Assembly: GCA_000402515.1 (NCBI GenBank) | Contig: AQRL01000036.1 | Location: 4,871-68,870 of the forward strand | Reading direction: 5' to 3' | Length of the DNA: 64,000 nt | DNA from: Nanoarchaeota archaeon SCGC AAA011-G17 | Lineage (GTDB): Archaea; Nanobdellota; Nanobdellia; SCGC-AAA011-G17 | Part shown: one piece after another, positions 7,117 to 35,264 of the stretch | Position numbering within the stretch: position 1 is the stretch's first letter | Layout: each line of letters begins with the position of its first letter | Position numbers and translations under genes: made by a program | Notes under the pieces: model-generated | What the model saw: the letters and a program-made list of their open reading frames with translations, nothing else | Told to the model about the DNA's origin: nothing | Database searches by the model: none

Positions 7117-9297
7117 TTATTTCTTTCTTTGCACTATTTTTATTACCTGGCCGTCTTTAAGATAAGCTATTCTTTCTGCATATTTTGTCAGGTCTGGGTC
7201 ATGGGTAATCATTATAATTGTTTTCTTCTCTTCTCTATTGAGTTTCCTTAGAGTTTCCATTACATTTATTCCTGATTGTGAATCAAGATTTCCTGTTGGT
7301 TCGTCTGCTAGTATTACTTCCGGGTCATTTGCAAGTGCGCGTGCAATTGCCACTCTCTGACTCTCCCCTCCTGAATTATGAAGATAAATTCCATGTGTGC
7401 CAATAAATCTATTATTTTCATCTGAGACATCATAAACATATTGTGTCTTATTTATCTTTTTTATTTCTTTTATTTTTACAAAACCAACATCACCCTGAAT
7501 TATTTTTTTGTAATCTTCATGTTTCACCTTAAAAAGGATATAATTTAATAGGCCCTTTTTTATTGAATAATTTCTTTGTATATCCTGCCTCAAGATTGAC
7601 CCAATCCCAGAACATTCTGTTGTAGTAAATAACTTTCTATTTGAATCTATAAATTCAATTAAGTCTTCTTCAAATGGAATGTAATTAGGCAGAATATCTG
7701 TTTTTCCCAAACCATTAACACCAATATTGTTAAAAGTAACATTATATCCCCTTTTGTTTAGTTCCTTAGCAAATATCTCACATTGTTTACCATAAAGACA
7801 TAGTTTGTAGGATTTTCTTCTATCCCTTTGATTTGGAAAATGTGTTTCTATTGCTGGAATATAGCCCAATTGTAGGAATAAGAAATGAAGTTTCTTTGCT
7901 AATATCTCTGAAGTTGTTTTTATAGAAATCTCTCTTCTTTTTTCTTTACCTTTTATTGTTCCTTTCTTCCTATGTGTTCCATCTCCATAAGCTCCTGCTA
8001 AAAATTCTAATTTTAGCTCATTTGAAACGTTGAATAGAATATTTGGGATATTTCTTGAATAACAATTTTCTCCAACCTTAAATATTTTTAGGAAAATTAA
8101 GGAAAGTAGTTTATTGCTTGTCTCTAATTTTATTGTATTGTGCTCTTTTTCTATCTTTTTTCTTATTTTTACTTTAAATATATCTTCGAATATCTTTTTT
8201 ATACTGTTTGCTCTTTCTTTTTCATTAATTCCTAGGGTGAAAGTTATATAGTATCTGCTATTTTTTTGATCGTGCCTTACACAACCTTCTGAAGCAAAAT
8301 CTCCCAAAATCCTACATAAATTTTTATCTATTTTTATTTTAGTTGGGATGGCTTCTTTTAAATGACTTACTTTAAATCTTATTTTATCATTTTTGGTTAT
8401 AATATATTTATATTGTGGTATTTTTTTTAACTCTTTTTTTAAGTCAATAATTTTGTTATCTAAATAGGGATTATTTGGGAGATTCATAGAAATTGGAATT
8501 GTTTCCTCTTTTTTTAAATCTGAAACTTTTTTGGGAAATATCTTTCCATTTTTATAAACAAATATGCTGTGAGATCCTGTACATTCAATACTATAACCAT
8601 ATTCTGTTTTTATTTTGTAGATTGAATTGGATTTATGCCTTATGACTTGTTTTAGGCTGGTGAATATTTGTTTATATTGGTCATTGAATGTTGCTATTTT
8701 TATTGGCTCTCTTACTGTTATTCTTACCCCTTCATTTACATTTGATATTTTTTCAATGTTTTTTGAATTTTTTATTAAACTATCAACAAATTCTCCAATT
8801 TTTATTGGGATTATTATATTATTTTTTTTTACTATAATATATTCATCTTTTCCTACACTTAATTGCGAGGGCAAATGACCAAGTCTTTCTCCCAACCCTA
8901 CTTTTTTTAACAGTTCTGTTGCTCTTTTTTTTCTGTGCTGCTCGGTTGTATCCTGGAAGAGCATTGGAAGCATTACATTTTCTATAGCAGTTAAGCTGGG
9001 GATTAAATTATACTGCTGAAAGACAAAACCAATTTTTCTGCCTCTTATCTGAGCCAGAGTAGATTCTGATAAATGCGCTATGTTATGTTTATCTAGATAG
9101 ATATTTCCTTTTGTTGGAACATCTAAACAACCAATTGAGTTAAGCATTGTTGACTTTCCTGATCCAGAGGGACCAAAGACCATTAAGAATTCTCCCTGTT
9201 TTACTTCAAGATTAACACCTTTTAAAGCAGGAACTTCTACTTCACCTATCTGATATATTTTTTCTACATTATCCAATTTTATTATTATATTAGTCAT
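7117..9297 (-). CDS. ABC transporter ATP-binding protein (MacB/LolD-like) containing an intein
   Basis: Walker A GPSGSGKST, Q-loop, then PSQL|S...HN|SGGESQRVAIARALANDPEVILADEPTGNLD; exteins sum to ~231 aa, the normal size of an ABC ATPase. Confidence 0.85.
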   Translation of the reverse strand: MTNIIIKLDNVEKIYQIGEVEVPALKGVNLEVKQGEFLMVFGPSGSGKSTMLNSIGCLDVPTKGNIYLDKHNIAHLSESTLAQIRGRKIGFVFQQYNLIPSLTAIENVMLPMLFQDTTEQHRKKRATELLKKVGLGERLGHLPSQLSVGKDEYIIVKKNNIIIPIKIGEFVDSLIKNSKNIEKISNVNEGVRITVREPIKIATFNDQYKQIFTSLKQVIRHKSNSIYKIKTEYGYSIECTGSHSIFVYKNGKIFPKKVSDLKKEETIPISMNLPNNPYLDNKIIDLKKELKKIPQYKYIITKNDKIRFKVSHLKEAIPTKIKIDKNLCRILGDFASEGCVRHDQKNSRYYITFTLGINEKERANSIKKIFEDIFKVKIRKKIEKEHNTIKLETSNKLLSLIFLKIFKVGENCYSRNIPNILFNVSNELKLEFLAGAYGDGTHRKKGTIKGKEKRREISIKTTSEILAKKLHFLFLQLGYIPAIETHFPNQRDRRKSYKLCLYGKQCEIFAKELNKRGYNVTFNNIGVNGLGKTDILPNYIPFEEDLIEFIDSNRKLFTTTECSGIGSILRQDIQRNYSIKKGLLNYILFKVKHEDYKKIIQGDVGFVKIKEIKKINKTQYVYDVSDENNRFIGTHGIYLHNSGGESQRVAIARALANDPEVILADEPTGNLDSQSGINVMETLRKLNREEKKTIIMITHDPDLTKYAERIAYLKDGQVIKIVQRKK
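7375..8859 (-). mobile_element. Intein (495 aa) with LAGLIDADG homing-endonuclease domain, inserted between L and SGG of the ABC signature motif
   Basis: Begins with Ser (SVGKDEYIIV...), ends ...GIYLHN followed by S; two LAGLIDADG motifs (LCRILGDFASEG, LEFLAGAYGDGT); extein junction reconstitutes LSGGE. Confidence 0.8.
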
Positions 9298-14130: not shown

Positions 14131-14161
14131 GATTTATATTTCTTTAGTTTATATAAATAAT

Positions 14162-14581
14162 ATGAAAATTGTTTTAATTGCGTGTGCAAGCAAAAAATTG
14201 TCCAAAAAAACTGAGGCAAGGGATTTATACATAAGCCCATTATTCAAATATAATATTAGATATGCCAAATCATTAAATCCTGATAGTATATTTATTCTTT
14301 CTGCAAAATATGGCTTATTAGAATTGAATGAAGAAGTAGGACCTTATAACCAAACATTAAATAGAATGAATAATGAAGAGATTGTAAAATGGGCGGATGG
14401 AGTTATTAATAAACTAAGTAAGAAAACAGACCTTAAGAATGATGAATTTATTTTTTTAGCAGGAGAAAAATATAGAAAATTTTTGATACCCCATATCTCT
14501 AATTATAAAATTCCTTTAGAAGGGCTCGGGATTGGAAAGCAATTAAAATTCCTGAAAGAGAGGATAAAAGATGAGCAATAA
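14162..14581 (+). CDS. Conserved hypothetical protein (139 aa), first gene of a two-gene module
   Basis: MKIVLIACASKK...ARDLYISPLF...ILSAKYGLL; overlaps next gene by 11 nt. Confidence 0.4.
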   Translation: MKIVLIACASKKLSKKTEARDLYISPLFKYNIRYAKSLNPDSIFILSAKYGLLELNEEVGPYNQTLNRMNNEEIVKWADGVINKLSKKTDLKNDEFIFLAGEKYRKFLIPHISNYKIPLEGLGIGKQLKFLKERIKDEQ

Positions 14582-15209
14582 CTGCAATAAATTACATAAG
14601 TTAGTTAATAATTCAAAGAGATTAAAATTTCCTTTTAAGGAAGAAGATATTCCGCTGAATGGAATCTATATATTATTTGAGAAAGATGAATTTGCTCATA
14701 ATGGTGATAGGATTGTTAGAATTGGAAGCCATACTGGAATAGGTCAATTGAGATCTAGATTAAAACAGCATTTTATTAATGAAAACAAAGACAGGAGCAT
14801 TTTCAGAAAAAATATCGGGAGGGCTCTGCTTAACAAGAGTAAAGATAAGTTTCTTGAACAGTGGGAATTAGATTTAACTTCTAAAAAATCCAAAGAGAAA
14901 AATCTGCATTTAATAGATCTTAGTAAACAAAAAGAAATTGAAAAAAAATTTACAGAGTATATCCAGAATAATTTCAGTTTTATTGTTCTAAAGATAGATG
15001 ACAAGAAAAGAAGGCTTGAGAGTGAGTCTAAACTAATTTCAACTGTTTCATTATGCAGGGAATGCAGGCCATCAAAAAACTGGCTTGGCTTATTCTCTCC
15101 AAAAGAGAAGATAGTAAAGAGCGGGCTTTGGCTGGTTAATGAGCTATACAAAGAGCCATTATCTGATAAAGAAACAGATGAGCTAAAGAATTACTTATTC
15201 AAGTCCTGA
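14571..15209 (+). CDS. GIY-YIG nuclease-family protein with C-terminal extension
   Basis: NGIYILFEKDEFAHNGDRIVRIGSHTGIGQLRSRLKQHF matches GIY...YIG...R..H. Confidence 0.5.
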   Translation: MSNNCNKLHKLVNNSKRLKFPFKEEDIPLNGIYILFEKDEFAHNGDRIVRIGSHTGIGQLRSRLKQHFINENKDRSIFRKNIGRALLNKSKDKFLEQWELDLTSKKSKEKNLHLIDLSKQKEIEKKFTEYIQNNFSFIVLKIDDKKRRLESESKLISTVSLCRECRPSKNWLGLFSPKEKIVKSGLWLVNELYKEPLSDKETDELKNYLFKS

Positions 15210-16078
15210 TAAGCTGAGTTTGCTGCTGTTGCTCCCTCTCCGCATGCTGTTATTATCTGCTTCAAAGAATTATTTGTAATATCACCTGCTGCATAGATTC
15301 CATTAATATTTGTTCTCTGCTGCTTGTCTGCTATAATATAACCTTTTGAATCTGTTTTTATTTTTAATTGTGATATCAATCTCTGGTCGGGTATTGCCCC
15401 AACTTCTATAAATAATCCATCTACTTTTAATTTTTTTCCTGATTTCAGCTCTATGGCTTCGAGGAATTTTTCCCCTTCTAATTTAGCTATATCTTCCCTG
15501 AATATTTGTTTTATTTTTTTCTTACCTTTTAGCTGACTCAGCCATACTGGATCTGCCCTGAATTTATCCCCTCTGTATATCAAATAAACAGTGTCTGCAT
15601 AATCAGCCAGAAGCAATGCTGTTGTTACTGCTCCATTTCCCCCGCCAGCAACTGCAACATTCTTATTCCTAAACAAGGGTCCGTCGCAAGTTCCGCAATA
15701 AGAAATTCCACGACCTAGTAATTCCATTTCCCTTGGTATGTTCAGCTTCTTTCTTTCTGTTCCTGCTGCAAGTATCATCTTCTTTGCTTCAAATGTTTTT
15801 CCTTTTGCTGTTTTAACCTTAAATTTATTTGATATTTTAATTACCTCATCATATATCATTTCTGCATTTAATTTTTTTACATGCTCCTCCATCTTTTTCA
15901 TTAAATCAAATCCAGAAATATCTTCATATGTCGGGAAATTACAGATTTTATGGGCTGTTGTTGCTATCCCTCCCGGAATTTTTGTGATTAGTAAGGTCTT
16001 TAATTTATATCTGGATGCATACATTGCTGCTGTCAGTCCGGCTGGCCCTCCCCCTATTATTATTAGGTCATATTTCAT
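15191..16078 (-). CDS. Thioredoxin-disulfide reductase-like flavoprotein
   Basis: LIIIGGGPAGLTAAMY FAD motif, SYCGTCDG redox-active dicysteine, second GxGxxA NAD(P) motif. Confidence 0.7.
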   Translation of the reverse strand: MKYDLIIIGGGPAGLTAAMYASRYKLKTLLITKIPGGIATTAHKICNFPTYEDISGFDLMKKMEEHVKKLNAEMIYDEVIKISNKFKVKTAKGKTFEAKKMILAAGTERKKLNIPREMELLGRGISYCGTCDGPLFRNKNVAVAGGGNGAVTTALLLADYADTVYLIYRGDKFRADPVWLSQLKGKKKIKQIFREDIAKLEGEKFLEAIELKSGKKLKVDGLFIEVGAIPDQRLISQLKIKTDSKGYIIADKQQRTNINGIYAAGDITNNSLKQIITACGEGATAANSAYQDLNK

Positions 16079-18678: not shown

Positions 18679-18766
18679 TCTTATTATAAGAAAGTAAGAT
18701 TAACTTATTTATAAACTTTTCTGTTTGGATAGTTTTTTAAAAGCAGATTTCTTTTATTTTTATGTG

Positions 18767-18841
18767 GGCTTGTAGCTCAGCTTGGATAGAGCACCACACT
18801 CCTAATGTGGGGGTCGAGGGTTCGAATCCCTCCAGAGGCTT
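18767..18841 (+). tRNA. tRNA-Arg(CCU)-like partial duplicate with non-pairing acceptor stem (pseudo-tRNA or att remnant)
   Basis: 60 nt (18773-18832) identical to tRNA at 20708-20782, but 5' GGGCTTG cannot pair with 3' CAGAGGC. Confidence 0.5.
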
Positions 18842-18985
18842 TAGATTATAGAAGATTTTATTGTAAAGCCATTTAATGCCTCTAAAATTGAAGAGACTAT
18901 GAAAAAGATTTTGAAGTAGATAACTTAATTATTAGTTTTATTAAGAGAACGAAAGATTTAAATATAAGTTCTATTTAAAATACTT

Positions 18986-20248
18986 ATGTCAAATATAATT
19001 GATACTATAAAATTACTCAATCCTTGGTGGGAAGATGAAAGAGTTAGCGAGGAGCTTGCCAAACAGTATAAAAGAAGCTTTTTTGATAAAATACAAGAAT
19101 TTAAGAAATATAAGCAAATAATTATTCTTACAGGATTAAGGAGAGTTGGAAAAACCACCCTTATCTATCAAACAGTAAAAGAGCTGCTTAATGGAACTGA
19201 CTCAAAAAGAATTTTTTATTTTAGTTTTGACAAGGAGGTTGATGATTTAGTAGAACTTTTTGAAAATTACAAAGAGCTAACGGGAATAAACTACAAAAAA
19301 GAAAAAATTTTTGTTTTTTTTGATGAAATAACCCGATTTAAAAAATGGGCTATTGAACTGAAATTAATTTATGACTCCTGTCCTAATATAAAATTTTGTA
19401 TTTCATCGTCAAGCAGCATTAATTTGGAAGAAGATGCTATAAAAAATCTTGCGGGGAGATATTTCCTAATTAATATAAGCCCTTTGAGCTTTAAAGAATT
19501 TTTAGAATTAAGGGGTAAGGAAAAAATGATTAAAAATTATAGGCTCTACTCAAGGGAAATAAAAAAAGAGTTTTTTTCTTATTTATTGAGGAGCTTTCCA
19601 GAAACAGTAAATTGGGATAATGAACTAGTTATCAAGGATTATCTTAGAACAACAATTATAGATAAGATAATTAAATCAGATCTTCCAGAAAGATTCAACA
19701 ATATTAATAAAGAATTACTGTATAATCTCCTAGAATTATTTTATAAGGAGCCAGGATTTTATCTTGATTATGATAATTTATCAAAAAATTTAAGGATAAG
19801 TAAGAACACACTATACACTCACATTTTCTATCTTGAATTCTGCTATCTAATAAGAATTGTGAAAAATTTCAGGCCCAGCACACTCTCAACAAGCAGAAAG
19901 CTACAAAGAGTTTATCCTTATTGGTGGAATTTGGTATATTGCTATGGAGAAAATAATGACAAAATTTTAGAGTCTTTTGTCTTAAGCATAATAGACGGAA
20001 AGTATTATTGGAGGAATTTAGAAAAAGAAATTGATTTCTTAAAAATTGAAGGCAGGAATATTCTGCCTATTGAAGTTAAAAACAGAGAAAGAGTTGAAGA
20101 GCGAGATTTGAATACATTAAAATTATTTATGAGCAAGTATAAATTAAAAAAATCTCTTCTTTTATATCTTGGAGATGAAAAAATCAGAGATTATGATAGT
20201 GGAAAGATTGAATTTATTCCATTCTGGAAATGGCTCTTAACAGAATAA
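18986..20248 (+). CDS. AAA+ ATPase with DUF4143 C-terminal domain (COG1373 family)
   Basis: Walker A LTGLRRVGKTT, Walker B FFDEI, DUF4143-like C-terminal region. Confidence 0.65.
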   Translation: MSNIIDTIKLLNPWWEDERVSEELAKQYKRSFFDKIQEFKKYKQIIILTGLRRVGKTTLIYQTVKELLNGTDSKRIFYFSFDKEVDDLVELFENYKELTGINYKKEKIFVFFDEITRFKKWAIELKLIYDSCPNIKFCISSSSSINLEEDAIKNLAGRYFLINISPLSFKEFLELRGKEKMIKNYRLYSREIKKEFFSYLLRSFPETVNWDNELVIKDYLRTTIIDKIIKSDLPERFNNINKELLYNLLELFYKEPGFYLDYDNLSKNLRISKNTLYTHIFYLEFCYLIRIVKNFRPSTLSTSRKLQRVYPYWWNLVYCYGENNDKILESFVLSIIDGKYYWRNLEKEIDFLKIEGRNILPIEVKNRERVEERDLNTLKLFMSKYKLKKSLLLYLGDEKIRDYDSGKIEFIPFWKWLLTE

Positions 20249-20707: not shown

Positions 20708-20782
20708 GCCCGGGTAGCTCAGCTTGGATAGAGCACCACACTCCTAATGTGGGGGTCGAGGGTTCGAATCCCTTCTCGGGCG
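20708..20782 (+). tRNA. tRNA-Arg (anticodon CCU)
   Basis: Acceptor GCCCGGG/CTCGGGC (one G-U), D-arm GCTC-AGCTTGGATA-GAGC, anticodon arm CCACA-CTCCTAA-TGTGG, T-arm GAGGG-TTCGAAT-CCCTT; 75 nt. Confidence 0.85.
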
Positions 20783-20785
20783 CTT

Positions 20786-32209: not shown

Positions 32210-32923
32210 ATGAAAAGTATAATATTGTTAAAGGAACTTGAAAAATATAAAGTATTTAATAATAAGGTAGTTAGAGACATAATAAAAAAAGATCATAACT
32301 ATACTAGGCTGCTTATATATCGGCTTAAAAAGAGCAACTTAATTATAGAAATAGAGAAAAACAAATACACAGTACACGAAGATCCATTAATTATAGCAGA
32401 TAGTATGGTGTGGCCATCTTACCTTTCCTGCTGGACTGCTTTGAGATTTCATAACTTAACAGAACAGCTTCCAAATACAATCTTTGTTATAACAACAAGG
32501 TCTAGAAAAAACAATAAAATAGTATTTAATAATAATAAAATCATTTTTATAAAAGTAAAACAAAAATATTTTTTTGGGTATAATAAAGAAAATTACAGGG
32601 GTTATGATACATTTATAGCTGACCCAGAAAAAGCCATAATAGATTCAGCATTATTTAAGAAGATATCTTTATCTGAGTTATACACCATTATTAAAAATAA
32701 TTTAAATTCAATAAATGCTGCTTTGTTTATTGATTATTTATTAAGAATAAAAAATAAAACCCTGATAAAAAGATTTGGAATTTTATTTGATAAGCTTAGA
32801 TTAGACTTTTATGACAAATTAAAATCCTTTATTAATAATAAATATATTATATTGGATTATGCATTGCCCAAGAATAAAAACAAAAACATGAAATGGAAGG
32901 TAATTGAAAATGTTAGATATTAA
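32210..32923 (+). CDS. abiEi: AbiEi-family antitoxin/transcriptional regulator
   Basis: Upstream partner of AbiEii with 20-nt overlap; C-terminal domain similar to AbiEi. Confidence 0.6.
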   Translation: MKSIILLKELEKYKVFNNKVVRDIIKKDHNYTRLLIYRLKKSNLIIEIEKNKYTVHEDPLIIADSMVWPSYLSCWTALRFHNLTEQLPNTIFVITTRSRKNNKIVFNNNKIIFIKVKQKYFFGYNKENYRGYDTFIADPEKAIIDSALFKKISLSELYTIIKNNLNSINAALFIDYLLRIKNKTLIKRFGILFDKLRLDFYDKLKSFINNKYIILDYALPKNKNKNMKWKVIENVRY

Positions 32924-33680
32924 TGAACTAAAGAGAATTTCTGAGCTAAAAAGAATTTCATTGATAAATACAGAAAAAGATTATATCCAGGATATTATTT
33001 TATTCAGCCTTTATTCTAATATCGGAAGAGAATTTATATTTAAGGGAGGAACTTGCCTTTATAAGGTGTATAAGTTAAATAGATTTAGTGAAGATTTAGA
33101 TTTTACACTAATAAAAAATGCAGATACCAAAAATATTTTTAATAAATTAATTTATGATTTAAAACTTCTTAATATTAATGGAAATATTAAAGAGATTAAA
33201 GAATATAAAAATGAAATTAATGTGAGATTAATCTTCAATGGCCCCCTCTACAGGGGAAGAAAGGAAGAGCAGTGTTTTATTCCTATAAATATAAGCCTAA
33301 AAGAAAAAGTTCTTATAGAACCAAAAAATGAAATGATAATTTCTATGTACAAAGAAATTCCAAATTTTGAAATTTTCATTATGGATGAACAAGAAATACT
33401 GGCAGAAAAATTCAGAGCTATATTAAGCAGGGAAAAACCAAGAGATATTTATGATGCATGGTTCTTATTAATAAAGAAAAATATAAGCCCCGATATAAAG
33501 ATAATCAATAAAAAGTTATCTCTATATAATCTTAAATTTAACTTGAATAAATTTATAGATAGCGTTGAAAAAAAGAGAGGCTTATGGAATTTAGATCTTA
33601 AAAATTTAATTATAGGAGAGCTTCCTGATTTTGATGAAATTAAGAAAGAAATTATTTCTAAATTAAAAGAAAATCATTAA
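32904..33680 (+). CDS. abiEii: AbiEii/AbiGii nucleotidyltransferase toxin (DUF1814)
   Basis: FKGGTCLYKVYKLNRFSEDLDFT matches the KGGTAL...RFSEDLDF nucleotidyltransferase signature. Confidence 0.8.
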   Translation: MKMLDINELKRISELKRISLINTEKDYIQDIILFSLYSNIGREFIFKGGTCLYKVYKLNRFSEDLDFTLIKNADTKNIFNKLIYDLKLLNINGNIKEIKEYKNEINVRLIFNGPLYRGRKEEQCFIPINISLKEKVLIEPKNEMIISMYKEIPNFEIFIMDEQEILAEKFRAILSREKPRDIYDAWFLLIKKNISPDIKIINKKLSLYNLKFNLNKFIDSVEKKRGLWNLDLKNLIIGELPDFDEIKKEIISKLKENH

Positions 33681-33712
33681 AATTAGCTTGCATTTTTTAG
33701 TTTCTTTCCTAA

Positions 33713-33785
33713 TTTAGTTATTAAGCCCTCTTTCATAGCTTTTTACAGTGTTTTTCAACTATTTAAATATTATGGTTGTTACTAC
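33713..33785. repeat. ~73-bp direct repeat (copy 2)
   Basis: See 32052-32125. Confidence 0.8.
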
Positions 33786-33846
33786 TAATAGTTAATGAAT
33801 AAAGGAAAGAGAAAGGTTTAAATAACAAAAGTAATAAATAATTTTT

Positions 33847-34056
33847 ATGACAGAAACAATAACAATGCCAAGAGGAGAATTTAAGAAATTAATTTCTGAT
33901 GTAGAAATAGTCATAAACGATGTAGAATCAATTCTCTCTAGTGAAGACAAACTTACTAAAAAAAGGATTGATGATATAGAATCCGGAAAAGTAAAGGGTA
34001 AAACTGAAAAAGAATTAGATGAGTATCTTAAGAATAGAGGGATAAGAGTTGGCTAA
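33847..34056 (+). CDS. Small antitoxin-like protein (69 aa)
   Basis: Short charged ORF immediately followed by a RelE-like remnant. Confidence 0.35.
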   Translation: MTETITMPRGEFKKLISDVEIVINDVESILSSEDKLTKKRIDDIESGKVKGKTEKELDEYLKNRGIRVG

Positions 34057-34185
34057 TTGGGAGATAAAAGAGCACCCAGATTTCTTTAAGGACTTAGACA
34101 GATTAAATAAAAGTGAATTAGAAATATTTTATAAAAAGAAAGAAAAAATCAAGAAAAATCCAGACTGGGACAAAAGTTAATAAAA
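34057..34185 (+). pseudogene. RelE/ParE-like toxin remnant (no ATG; stops after ~42 codons)
   Basis: Hand translation WEIKEHPDFFKDLDRLNKSELEIFYKKKEKIKKNPDWDKS* resembles the RelE N-terminus (W.I.F...F.KDLKKL...NP..G). Confidence 0.4.
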
Positions 34186-34355
34186 TTCTTACAATAGAAG
34201 AAAGGTTCAATAAGGTAGAGAATGAGCATAATCTTGTTATGAATAGCAAACTAAAACTCAAAAATAGATAATTCTTGTAAATTTATTTGAATTACATATT
34301 AAAACAATTCTGACCAAAACATTTAAAAGTAAATTTTCTAAGAATCTATTAGTAT

Positions 34356-34378
34356 GCGTCAGTAGTCTAATGGTTAGG
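34356..34378 (+). tRNA. tRNA 5' fragment (acceptor+D-arm, GCGTCAG-TA-GTCTAATGGTTAGG) with no cognate 3' half nearby
   Basis: 19/23 identity to the 5' end of the tRNA-Gly at 35298; possible split-tRNA half or integration remnant. Confidence 0.4.
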
Positions 34379-34421
34379 TAAAATAGATAAACTTTTATAC
34401 TCATTAATCTTATTTTTATTA

Positions 34422-35264
34422 ATGAAATATCTGGATTTTAGTAAAAAAGACCAAATTTCATTTATGAGGTTAGTTAAAGAACGAAGTAATCTTAAATGGG
34501 AAAAAATTGCACATTTTCTTGGTATCCATAGAAGTATGATTTTTTTCTATTTGAATGGTAAATCAAAGATTCCATATGAAAATTATAAAAAATTATGTAG
34601 TTTAGCAAAAATAAAACAATCACACAAATCATATGTTTTTATAAAAAATAAAATACAACCAATAAATAAAATTAATATGATTGATAATAATCTTGCTGAA
34701 TTATTAGGTATTCTTGCAGGAGATGGTCATATTTCCAATATAAATTATGAAGTTTGTGTTAGTGGGCATATGATTCTAGATAAAGAATATATCAACAAAA
34801 ATGTAGTTTTCCTTTTTGAAAAGTTATTTGGTCTTGACTCTAAATTAAAAATATACAAACCATATACCCATCTTAGATGCTGTGTTAATTCAAAATTACT
34901 CATAGAATATTTATCAAAAGAATTTAATTTACCAGTTGGAAAAAAGAAGGGGAATCTACATATTCCCAAACAAATAATTGAAGATAAATTACTATTAAAA
35001 TATTATATACGTGGTCTTTTTGATACTGATGGTAGTGTATATTTTAGACGCAAAAAAGACATTGTTGTATCAATAATTAGTGGAGATTTATTATTTTTGA
35101 ATGAGGTAAAAAATGCATTAAAAATTTTAGGATATAATCCATGCGTAAGTGGAAAAAACCTTTATCTTTATAAAAAAGAAGAGGTAAAAAGATTTTTTTC
35201 TGAAATTAATCCTATAAATAAAAAACATTTGGATAGATATTCTAATTTTTTGAAACTGCGTTAA
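34422..35264 (+). CDS. Free-standing LAGLIDADG homing endonuclease
   Basis: Two LAGLIDADG motifs: LAELLGILAGDGHIS and LKYYIRGLFDTDGSV. Confidence 0.8.
   Translation: MKYLDFSKKDQISFMRLVKERSNLKWEKIAHFLGIHRSMIFFYLNGKSKIPYENYKKLCSLAKIKQSHKSYVFIKNKIQPINKINMIDNNLAELLGILAGDGHISNINYEVCVSGHMILDKEYINKNVVFLFEKLFGLDSKLKIYKPYTHLRCCVNSKLLIEYLSKEFNLPVGKKKGNLHIPKQIIEDKLLLKYYIRGLFDTDGSVYFRRKKDIVVSIISGDLLFLNEVKNALKILGYNPCVSGKNLYLYKKEEVKRFFSEINPINKKHLDRYSNFLKLR

Follow-up and report, generated by a model that had tools for sequence, protein, structure and literature searches.

Genes A and B of this nanoarchaeal locus are read as one functional unit, bound by an obligate genetic linkage that in many relatives extends to fusion into a single reading frame. 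The pair is tentatively interpreted here as encoding a DNA-incision complex aimed at aberrant nucleotides, with genome maintenance the narrowly preferred role at the archaeal locus. Gene A encodes a DUF6884 protein that is predicted to act as a DNA-binding, base-flipping sensor or enzyme, and gene B encodes a predicted GIY-YIG-type nuclease. The preliminary description of this DNA proposed a candidate novel defence or nucleic-acid-targeting pair. Nucleic acid targeting is well supported by the YaaA-like character of A, the GIY-YIG character of B and the linkage of the two, while the claim of novelty falls, as PDC-M57, PF21818 and PF26468 are already on record. Two families are tied together here by adjacency or fusion, and identifying what A binds and how B cuts would give a function to both.

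The pair lies in a window of 64,000 nucleotides, the whole stretch of DNA that was analyzed (Table 1). Both reading frames and their 11-nt overlap are as described previously, with translations identical to those quoted. The stretch immediately upstream of A contains TTTATAT (14133-14139) and TTTATATAAATA (14148-14159) and may serve as an archaeal promoter, from which a transcript with a short leader or none would start; the sigma-70 promoter scan that was run on the locus is not applicable to archaea. Within the 3′ end of A, GAGAGGA ends 6 nt ahead of the ATG codon of B, a position that would fit coupled translation of the two genes. Downstream, the convergent overlap with the thioredoxin reductase gene leaves no space for a terminator or an additional module gene, and a scan at the locus found no terminator-like site. 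The surroundings had been described as dense in toxin-antitoxin (TA) and defence genes. A MazE-like gene, a DUF4143 ATPase gene and a Fic gene are indeed located 3-6 kb downstream of the pair, and AbiE matches occur elsewhere in the window, but the genes that flank the pair are of a housekeeping kind, encoding a secreted protein, thioredoxin reductase, a GNAT acetyltransferase and a tRNA methyltransferase. No flanking repeats above chance matches were found, A and B are absent from the 14 lowest-GC genes (window mean GC 0.315, sd 0.04), and their composition is not foreign.

Table 1. Positions of the genes, signals and protein motifs of the A-B locus, numbered from the first letter of the window.
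Feature	Position	Strand	Detail	Basis
AT-rich, TATA-like stretch 5′ of gene A	14133-14159	+	candidate promoter region	sequence reading, inference only
Gene A	14162-14581	+	139 aa, ATG...TAA	ORF list
CxxxK motif of A	14183-14197	+	C8-A-S-K-K12, putative active site	DUF6884 motif
LSAxxG motif of A	14297-14314	+	L46-S-A-K-Y-G51	DUF6884 motif
GAGAGGA within the 3′ end of A	14558-14564	+	purine-rich, Shine-Dalgarno-like	sequence reading
Overlap of A end and B start	14571-14581	+	11 nt	
Gene B	14571-15209	+	212 aa, ATG...TGA	ORF list
GIY-YIG-type core of B	14652-15065	+	aa 28-165	alignments and AF2 model
GIY of B	14661-14669	+	G31-I32-Y33	B alignment
R-I-G of B, replacing Y-I-G	14718-14726	+	aa 50-52	B alignment
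R63 of B	14757-14759	+		B alignment
H67 of B	14769-14771	+		B alignment
Basic helix of B		+	NKDRSIFRKNIGR, aa 72-84	very conserved
Helical insertion in the B core		+	about aa 90-134	AF2 model
Third core strand of B		+	aa 135-141	AF2 model
E152 of B	15024-15026	+		B alignment
CxxC of B	15054-15065	+	aa 162-165	B alignment
Convergent 3′-3′ overlap of B and the thioredoxin reductase gene	15191-15209	.	19 nt	
Thioredoxin reductase gene, 3′ neighbour	15191-16078	-		ORF list

Protein A matches the Pfam family DUF6884 (PF21818) along the entire profile (1-135 of 135; E 4.4e-45; 153.6 bits at a cut-off of 30). It is a bona fide member of this family, to which B. subtilis YfjM also belongs, and carries the two motifs by which the family is defined, CxxxK and LSAxxG (PMC11701544). 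Among 71 paired A domains, C8 and K12 of the first motif are conserved in 94% and 96%, and L46, S47 and A48 of the second in 96%, 100% and 97%, respectively. Pfam curators describe DUF6884 as YaaA-like in fold and basic in its cleft, and their AF3 model shows base flipping (PMC11701544), and YfjM was found to be enriched on abasic and ribonucleotide baits (PMC11701544; PMC10220248). Protein A also matches phrog_5935 (E 2.7e-26) and is weakly related to two other proteins that act on DNA: YaaA, which binds DNA (Pfam model; 0.007), and DpdC, for which a weak and partial match to the PADLOC profile recurs (E 4e-5, residues 12-75). In a restriction system, DpdC serves as the modifying component and alters a base chemically within duplex DNA (PMC10164549). 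Both YaaA and DpdC are twice the size of A, and neither they nor YfjM are described as working with a nuclease. A is assigned to the YaaA-like DNA-binding superfamily, its YaaA-like fold being a prediction, and the conserved Cys/Lys pair hints at a catalytic role beyond binding. A single-sequence AF2 model of A reached a pLDDT of 50 and was not used, and neither A nor B had a match in NCBIfam.

Protein B belongs to PF26468, ‘GIY_YIG_3’, by precomputed annotation, and its scores against the established families of the clan are weak, at 0.0038 and 18.1 bits for DUF123 (cut-off 25) and 0.019 and 15.7 bits for GIY-YIG (cut-off 22.6). Among 115 diverse relatives, Pfam matches were to DUF123 (17), GIY_YIG_2 (13, the best at 1.5e-5) and GIY-YIG (10), and no nuclease fold other than these three families of the GIY-YIG clan recurred as a weak match. 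Conservation across the same relatives is high at Y33 (92%), R50 (92%), R63 (99%), H67 (99%) and E152 (91%). The second tyrosine of the GIY-YIG motif is replaced by arginine in V49-R50-I51-G52, tyrosine being present in only 2 of the 115. An invariant asparagine (motif E) was not seen beyond E152, where an invariant tryptophan and a semi-conserved CxxC (C162 and C165, ~61%) occur instead. The R-x3-H spacing of B equals that of I-TevI, and the local alignment with I-TevI falls in the expected register. The scores themselves were not significant when the B profile was compared by hhalign with the N-termini of I-TevI (E 0.38) and UvrC.

The arrangement of secondary structure in B was read from an AF2 model of a natural A-B fusion, P0114, which is 72% identical to B (pLDDT 95.6, pTM 0.77); positions were mapped with an offset of 135 residues, and the model was used for secondary structure only. 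The model places strands at residues 31-42, 45-52 and 135-141 of B, with helices at 60-68, 77-89 and 145-160, so that the modelled strand-strand-helix-helix...strand-helix order is that of a canonical GIY-YIG domain. The GIY, (R)IG, R63 and H67 elements had been read correctly in the preliminary description; the separate C-terminal domain of ~110 aa that it proposed does not stand. In the model, the third strand and the helix bearing E152 sit in the C-terminal half of the protein, beyond the insertion that splits the core, and the true C-terminal extension comprises only about 45 residues. From weak profile scores taken together with motif and topology, B is predicted to be a GIY-YIG-type nuclease with its key residues intact save for Arg50. 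Foldseek comparison of the P0114 model with the PDB returned no match at E ≤ 0.001 for either domain, and sequence-profile searches of the PDB with two family alignments (A1 and A2) were empty even at E 10. The Foldseek output included kinases and the vaccinia UDG as noise, at TM < 0.3.

The pair is already catalogued, as the predicted defence candidate PDC-M57. Protein A matches PDC-M57A (PDLC04712; E 3.1e-60; residues 2-135 on profile positions 3-136 of 138) and B matches PDC-M57B (PDLC04713; E 5.1e-98; residues 1-208 on profile positions 1-208 of 211), with the genes adjacent, in the same order and on the same strand. PDC-M57 is one of 145 PADLOC ‘guilt-by-embedding’ candidates, and the cassettes behind it sit within BREX, DISARM or type I restriction-modification (RM) loci (Payne et al., 2024, bioRxiv 10.1101/2024.01.29.577857); its standing is that of a candidate only. 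Unlike those source cassettes, the present copy is neither in nor next to a known defence system, and its flanks are housekeeping genes. A full-text literature search yielded nothing relevant on PDC-M57, on GIY-YIG proteins with YaaA or on YaaA with defence.

The two genes are very strongly linked. A immediately precedes B, in the same orientation, in 90 of the 92 related loci with sufficient upstream sequence, and 26 of these 90 contain a single fused A-B reading frame; DUF6884 is likewise fused to the B domain in 41 of 115 diverse representatives (~36%). Where the genes are not fused in frame, the junction usually has an overlap value of -7, -4, -1 or 0 nt. Fused and split forms share one position within a syntenic clade, and in one locus (L007) both genes have decayed together. 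The pLDDT and pTM of the modelled natural fusion suggest a fixed arrangement of its two domains. The preliminary description had left room for A to be a housekeeping protein and for the pair to occur nowhere else; A matched no housekeeping family, and in the loci compared the two are adjacent or fused almost throughout.

The family is widespread, and its sequences are unusually well preserved. Clustering at 90% identity gave 4318 homologues of B, all carrying PF26468, with 1236 representatives at the 50% level, drawn from Archaea, CPR bacteria and Proteobacteria. Archaeal and CPR-bacterial copies of B are 67% identical, which points to horizontal transfer. In syntenic archaeal loci, seryl-tRNA synthetases are 44-79% identical and the B proteins 67-86% identical, and B identities do not follow the seryl-tRNA synthetase tree. 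The putative pocket residues of A, namely Cys8, Lys12, Tyr23, Ser47, Tyr62, Trp77 and Tyr104, are near-invariant throughout the family. Mobile replicons contain very few copies: 50,697 phage records gave no match, 72,556 plasmids gave 5, all distant, and 2.9 million viral contigs gave 11.

The neighbourhoods of relatives divide along lines of divergence, with the provision that all compared loci were found by way of B and relatives lacking the pair are therefore invisible. For close relatives, contexts are mostly housekeeping or base-excision repair. The most frequent Pfam families among the nearest neighbours of 40 loci are HhH-GPD, Toprim, NUDIX and Exo_endo_phos, and 4-5 lineages have a compact operon of A-B, Toprim and endonuclease III. 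Other arrangements, too, bring endonuclease III near the pair, including one (L040) in which Nth, A-B and an 889-aa protein with helicase-type defence-model matches, read as Lhr-like, follow one another. A RadB-like gene (L015) or a NUDIX gene (L113) lies directly upstream in other loci. The weight of this repair context is lessened by the tiny size of DPANN and CPR genomes, in which any gene has housekeeping neighbours. Six further loci of more divergent members gave a different picture, 3 of the 6 being within or next to restriction or defence clusters. The proteobacterial L111, whose proteins are 47% identical to B and 42% to A, is situated between type I RM, Abi_2, HNH_2, a ScoMcrA-like enzyme, MqsRA and Fic; the Methanobacterium fusion L112 adjoins MjaI-type RM genes; and L116 adjoins HNH, UvrD and a 2108-aa DEAD/Helicase_C/MZB helicase that may be read as DruE-like from its domains. 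Fusions to Pif1/RecD-type helicases exist in the family, and so do fusions to a domain found at the N-terminus of a type IV restriction enzyme; in one member a domain in common with such an enzyme is present as an insertion.

Two systems offer precedents for a repair function. The archaeal GIY-YIG family COG1833/DUF123, for which a role in base-excision repair was predicted, has a Cys/His cluster similar to that of B, and its member in Methanocaldococcus (MJ0613) is joined to endonuclease III (PMC1564403). DUF123 is the best weak Pfam match of B, in both a GIY-YIG core is followed by a semi-conserved Cys/His cluster that seems to stand in for the usual Asn motif, and both are linked to endonuclease III, physically in MJ0613 and genomically in relatives of the pair. 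Falling below the DUF123 cut-off, B is placed in a separate family, PF26468, and it differs from COG1833 as described in its helical insertion of ~45 residues, its N-terminal Cys/His helix and its obligate DUF6884 partner. The second precedent is one of logic. In UvrB-UvrC and Cho, a non-nuclease partner recognizes an aberrant nucleotide and a GIY-YIG domain nicks nearby, as is proposed for A and B, and the Arg-x3-His plus Glu active-site arrangement of UvrC is shared by B (PMC1564403). Sequence-level membership of B in the UvrC or Cho families is lacking, A-B is without an ATPase and without a second (RNase H-like) nuclease domain, and the partner A is predicted to be YaaA-like in fold and not helicase-like.

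The domain identities, the conserved residues and the linkage or fusion are established as described above; the proposed mechanism adds, as predictions, the flipping of a base, the kind of ligand and the cutting of DNA. Protein A would bind duplex DNA through its basic cleft and flip a non-canonical nucleotide into the pocket formed by its seven near-invariant residues. Protein B, held on A in a 1:1 complex and simply fused to it in about a third of family lineages, would then cut the phosphodiester backbone beside the flagged nucleotide by means of Tyr33, Arg63, His67 and Glu152, with Arg50 replacing the second tyrosine; its basic helix and semi-conserved Cys/His cluster may serve in DNA holding and fold stabilization. 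Incision would feed base-excision-type repair, akin to damage verification followed by the GIY-YIG cut of UvrC, and the same chemistry may serve defence in members that reside in restriction islands. A more far-reaching formulation, possible but rather doubtful, is that A-B represents a previously unrecognized incision pathway, in which the aberrant nucleotide that A passes to B is a universal one, be it an abasic site, a ribonucleotide or some specific damaged base. Such a pathway would provide an entry to excision repair in genome-reduced DPANN archaea, CPR bacteria and methanogens and would have been recruited to restriction islands in larger genomes. In a sharper variant, the pocket of A might read 7-deazaguanine-type bases, as the remote relative DpdC does. 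Study of the pair could show how organisms of minimal genome deal with one class of DNA lesions, and should the pair prove to recognize a particular modified or damaged base and to nick next to that base, it might become a reagent for mapping lesions or modifications.

The inclination towards repair follows from conservation of B above that of seryl-tRNA synthetase, from neighbours of the base-excision type and from near-absence in phages and plasmids. PADLOC embedding and the three loci in or beside defence clusters leave the evidence on role split. Anti-virus defence has a substantial, if less than even, chance of being the actual function: in a type IV-like restriction system, A would read a modified phage base, such as a hypermodified pyrimidine or 7-deazaguanine, and B would cleave the DNA. 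End-to-end matches to models of a cassette chosen for its embedding in defence systems argue for this reading, as do the helicase and type IV fusions, the similarity of A to a protein that binds 7-deazaguanine-modified DNA (DpdC; PMC10164549), the spread across domains, which implies mobility, and the DUF4143, Fic and MazE-like genes a few kb away in the window. Pooled scans also gave scattered PADLOC matches among the neighbours of close homologues, type I RM in L080 among them. The fit with type IV enzymes of the ScoMcrA type is one of design, a base-reading module joined to a nuclease as predicted for A-B, and of company, since some family members sit among such enzymes and one shares a domain. 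We know of no type IV enzyme with the reader fold of A or the nuclease family of B. The conservation pattern of the pair is unlike that of restriction enzymes and far exceeds that of usual defence genes, and a near-invariant pocket would be easier to reconcile with a single universal ligand than with the diversity of phage modifications. RM or Fic genes were recognizable by BLAST in only ~4 of 41 close-homologue loci. Some neighbour matches are probably generic: ‘nicking endonuclease’ matches probably represent genes for endonuclease III, and ordinary enzymes are also picked up by the helicase and methyltransferase models. Virtual absence from sequenced phages and plasmids and a native gene composition count against defence as well. 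Whether this defence candidate is really a repair system bears on the trust to be placed in guilt-by-embedding predictions.

The remaining explanations are less probable. RM systems include enzymes in which modifier and nuclease are fused, and a related logic, in which A marks bases of host DNA as DpdC does and B cuts unmarked DNA, would suit the conserved Cys/Lys pair, the role of DpdC as a modification component (PMC10164549) and the defence-island contexts of L111 and L112. This arrangement is improbable given that the DpdC match is weak and partial, that no genes supplying a cofactor or precursor (queC/D/E, dpdA/B) and no other dpd, queuosine, TGT-like or ParB-like genes were found beside the pair in the Pfam-annotated loci inspected, and that the family is uniformly conserved, lacking the target-recognition variability of RM specificity determinants. 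A type II TA module, with B as nuclease toxin and A as labile antitoxin, is suggested by a small upstream gene that overlaps a downstream nuclease gene and by TA-like genes elsewhere in the window. It was rejected as very improbable, since an antitoxin open to separate degradation could not also be fused to its toxin, as A is fused to B in so many loci and representatives; A, moreover, has an enzyme-like DNA-binding fold of 139 aa with a conserved pocket rather than the build of a small DNA-binding antitoxin, and no TA model in PADLOC or Pfam matched either protein. Rejected as equally improbable is a selfish element composed of a free-standing homing endonuclease and a helper protein. GIY-YIG nucleases are common among homing endonucleases (PMC1564403), and highly similar copies occur across domains of life, but no intron or intein surrounds the module, its position is kept across a clade in which seryl-tRNA synthetases share only ~50% identity, and phage genomes, where such endonucleases abound, yielded no match; flanking repeats and a GC anomaly are likewise absent.

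Two identifications concerning the neighbours were considered and discarded. DUF7662, the C-terminal domain of three-domain relatives, showed no similarity by BLAST to the small Toprim protein that follows A-B in DPANN operons. The endonuclease III-like neighbours are not methylation-linked mismatch glycosylases of the Mig type, as all 8 carry the catalytic Lys and Asp of the EndoIII type; 6 of them have the Fe-S motif, and 2 are shorter.

The two-gene module of the preliminary description, including the 11-nt overlap of its ORFs and the translations quoted for it, was reproduced in full from the ORFs of the window. A GAGAGGA element lies within the upstream gene, A, 6 nt before the ATG of the downstream gene, B. 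The region upstream of A is AT-rich and contains a TATA-like stretch, while the 3' end of B overlaps the end of a convergently oriented thioredoxin-reductase gene. Proteins identical to A and B are recorded in NCBI assembly GCA_000380905.1. The window has a GC content of 0.316, and aTrm56 and other archaeal-type genes mark the host as an AT-rich archaeon. The proposed novelty of the pair was not borne out: both proteins match, over their full length, the PADLOC profiles of the candidate PDC-M57 (A to PDC-M57A, 3.1e-60; B to PDC-M57B, 5.1e-98), and the locus belongs to a catalogued, uncharacterised kind rather than to a new one. PDC-M57 corresponds to cassette CAS_00183 in the supplement of a study whose 145 "phage defence candidates," all of them untested predictions, are cassettes located inside BREX, DISARM or type I restriction-modification (RM) loci (Payne et al., 2024). 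No paper discussing the A-B pair itself was found in the searchable literature.

Coordinates of the A-B genes and of other features in the window and in related loci found through B (L-numbers)
Feature	Location	Remarks
Gene A	window 14162-14581	ORF, 139 aa; same strand as B
Gene B	window 14571-15209	ORF, 212 aa; same strand as A
tRNA-Arg(CCT) genes (two)	window 18766-18842 and 20708-20783	
DUF4143/AAA_14 ATPase gene	window 18986-20248	between the two tRNA-Arg(CCT) genes
Small stand-alone Toprim gene	L017:9035-9421; L085:10630-11004; L092:10626-10997; L098:2433-2819	
Distant B-family locus L109	6956-7708 and 10720-11565	Haloarcula plasmid pHsi139

Protein A matches Pfam family DUF6884 over its full length (E 4.4e-45), with a weak YaaA match in the same profile search. 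It carries CxxxK (C8...K12) and LSAxxG (L46-G51), the motifs highlighted for DUF6884 by Pfam curators, who describe an alpha/beta fold resembling that of YaaA, with a basic cleft (PMC11701544). Among 71 A domains paired or fused with B, the residues of these motifs are 94-100% conserved, as are Y23, S25, F28, Y34, P61, Y62, W77, D94, G101, Y104 and P118. In an AlphaFold3 model, Bacillus subtilis YfjM flips a nucleotide into the DUF6884 site (PMC11701544), and in a proteomic screen DNA with abasic sites or ribonucleotides enriched YfjM (PMC11701544; PMC10220248). Profiles of DpdC, which converts preQ0 to ADG inside duplex DNA (PMC10164549), gave repeated but weak matches to A (4e-5).

Protein B is assigned by precomputed annotation to the newer Pfam family GIY_YIG_3 (PF26468); against the local Pfam copy, its DUF123 and GIY-YIG scores were both below threshold. 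The weak recurrent matches of 115 diverse relatives all fall within the GIY-YIG clan (DUF123, 17; GIY_YIG_2, 13, best 1.5e-5; GIY-YIG, 10). The catalytic positions are nearly invariant (Y33, 92%; R63, 99%; H67, 99%; E152, 91%), Arg50 (92%) stands in for the second Tyr of the GIY-YIG motif, and one of the best-conserved segments is the helix NKDRSIFRKNIGR (aa 72-84). Conservation of C5 (79%), H9 (98%), and C162 and C165 (~61% each) suggests a putative structural metal site. A similar Cys/His cluster occurs in the nearest Pfam neighbour of B, COG1833/DUF123, an archaeal GIY-YIG family that in Methanocaldococcus forms a fusion with endonuclease III and is predicted to function in base-excision repair (PMC1564403), a parallel that speaks for repair.

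A structural model of P0114, a natural A-B fusion whose B part is ~70% identical to B, was built from a 90-sequence alignment (pLDDT 95.6, pTM 0.77). On B numbering, the predicted strands span 31-42 (GIY), 45-52 (RIG) and 135-141 and the helices 60-68 (R63, H67), 77-89 and 145-160 (E152), with a helical insertion between helix 77-89 and strand 135-141. This modelled order is that of a canonical GIY-YIG domain; thus, what had been taken for an unknown C-terminal domain in B consists largely of the insertion and the latter half of the nuclease core. The A domain of the model matched BFVD models of phage DUF6884 and "YaaA" proteins (E down to 2e-12). Searches by Foldseek and by sequence profile, the kind of check proposed earlier, found no solved structure for either domain.

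The two genes do co-occur elsewhere. Among the 92 related loci with sufficient upstream sequence, A lies directly 5' of B on the same strand in 90, and in 26 of these the two form a single ORF. The exceptions are L106, in which A is divergent, and L066, in which a HIT-like ORF (L066:2700-3356, HIHIYGR motif) takes the place of A. HIT genes also occur near the module in L036 (11774-12196 and 19189-19626, two within 9 kb) and adjacent to it in L111 (8483-8881); DNA 5'-adenylate hydrolases belong among the HIT enzymes. In L007 (5874-6591), from an uncultured archaeon, A and B have decayed together into a pseudogene: A is shortened to ~45 codons and has Gly in place of Cys8, and B has two in-frame stops, one within the GIY motif. 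B has 4318 homologues, the best 120 of which are 66-100% identical (mostly ~70%) and include 12 A-B fusions. An exhaustive search gave 1236 relatives as 50%-identity representatives. An N-terminal DUF6884 fusion was present in 41 of 115 scanned representatives, with a C-terminal DUF7662 as well in eight. The DUF7662 C-termini (P0143, P0137, P0274, P0340, P0161) share the pattern Y.PL..FL...LSF.EIE.ILG..LP.SA...R.WW.N....W..AGY.V. Less common fusion partners are Pif1-type helicases, a topoisomerase zinc ribbon and TPR repeats; in one representative with LRRs, the B domain stands without a detectable DUF6884. One fusion gains a domain in common with a type IV restriction enzyme: in P0127, from one branch of the family, a ~95-residue domain (residues 162-255; PF26345 by precomputed annotation) inserted between A and B matches (8.8e-20) the N-terminus of the model that PADLOC names "type IV methyl-directed restriction enzyme." Distant B homologues on Haloarcula megaplasmids (28-30% identity; second PADLOC B profile, 8e-64) adjoin ArdC-like and HNH genes, and on pHsi139 a DUF6884 gene (281 aa) is separated from the B homologue by 3 kb rather than adjacent to it.

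The best-supported reading casts A as a sensor or enzyme that binds DNA and probably flips bases, and B as a GIY-YIG-type nuclease: A would flip and recognise its nucleotide ligand, and B would cleave next to whatever A recognises. The analysis shows no more of this than the domain identities, conserved residues and linkage; the flipping, the ligand and the cut we infer. Because the putative pocket of A is nearly invariant across the whole family, one universal ligand is favoured over diverse phage-specific marks. Close homologues lie mainly among housekeeping genes, and the gene most often found near them encodes an HhH-GPD protein of the endonuclease III type (8 of 41 non-redundant loci), with the catalytic Lys and Asp in 8/8 and the Fe-S motif in 6/8. 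It occurs in more than one arrangement: A-B/Toprim/Nth, a tight operon of overlapping genes, and Nth/A-B/889-aa protein, the last of which we read as an Lhr-like helicase from its N-terminal sequence and helicase-type matches. The small Toprim protein (123-128 aa), encoded right behind A-B and ahead of endonuclease III with overlapping gene ends in four archaeal lineages, resembles the structural-genomics protein 1T6T (2.7e-11) and may serve that clade as a third component; BLAST found no similarity between it and the DUF7662 domain. Among the two nearest genes per side in 40 loci, the leading Pfam families were HhH-GPD (5), HHH (4), Toprim (4), NUDIX (3) and Exo_endo_phos (2), and the remainder ordinary metabolism and one type I RM; immediately upstream lie a RadB-like gene in L015 and a NUDIX gene in L113. 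Within the syntenic clade, B is 67-86% identical, versus 44-79% for seryl-tRNA synthetase. The nearly invariant pocket, this conservation and the base-excision repair neighbours marginally favour genome maintenance for this archaeal copy, and the full statement, recognition by A and incision by B in that role, is put forward tentatively.

A role in defence, as first proposed, is a serious and only slightly less probable competitor. An RM-like logic is an unlikely reading of the pair, and toxin-antitoxin and homing-endonuclease functions are more improbable still. The cassettes that gave rise to PDC-M57 are embedded in defence loci, which points to defence, and three of six further loci, sampled from more divergent family members, have RM or defence-cluster contexts, the other three being housekeeping. 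A gammaproteobacterial three-domain homologue (47% identical to B, 42% to A) is flanked by a type I RM system and by Abi_2, HNH_2, ScoMcrA-like, MqsRA and Fic genes; a Methanobacterium A-B fusion adjoins MjaI-type RM genes; and a third locus adjoins HNH, UvrD and a 2108-aa DEAD/Helicase_C/MZB helicase that we read as DruE-like from its domain make-up. Across the three nearest genes per side in 41 loci, PADLOC matches were scattered and single (type I REase, type II RM pair, DruA, SngC, UzuA and others), and some of them probably reflect generic similarity to helicases, methyltransferases or endonuclease III. When genuine RM and Fic proteins served as BLAST queries, about 4 of the 41 loci proved to contain such genes. 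Within the window, DUF4143, Fic and MazE-like genes lie 3-6 kb from A-B and AbiE matches elsewhere. On the side of repair, the family was found in 0 of 50,697 phage records and in 11 of 2.9 million viral contigs, and its plasmid copies are limited to distant ones on five Haloarcula megaplasmids. Horizontal transfer does occur, since B identities do not mirror the tree of seryl-tRNA synthetases, and B copies from archaea and from CPR bacteria are ~67% identical. Every locus in the comparison was found through B, to which relatives without the pair are hence invisible.

Other features of the window were also recorded. The two tRNA-Arg(CCT) genes, which flank the DUF4143/AAA_14 ATPase gene and a 124-aa ORF, have identical bodies and acceptor stems that differ by compensatory changes; the genes between them have a GC content of ~0.26-0.30. 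The arrangement resembles the outcome of an insertion at a tRNA gene or of its duplication, and the bracketed segment is perhaps an integrated-element remnant. PADLOC and Pfam scans of all ORFs gave AbiEi/AbiEii (type IV toxin-antitoxin), a second DUF4143 ATPase, PDC-S04 and PDC-M51A. The three lowest-GC genes (0.24), at 32210-35261, may form an island with AbiE/DUF4143/PDC matches; among PDB entries, 32904-33677 matched only unnamed proteins, weakly. An ABC-transporter ATPase gene (7117-9297, minus strand) is split by an intein, with Intein_splicing and LAGLIDADG_3 (a LAGLIDADG-type endonuclease region) between two ABC_tran halves.
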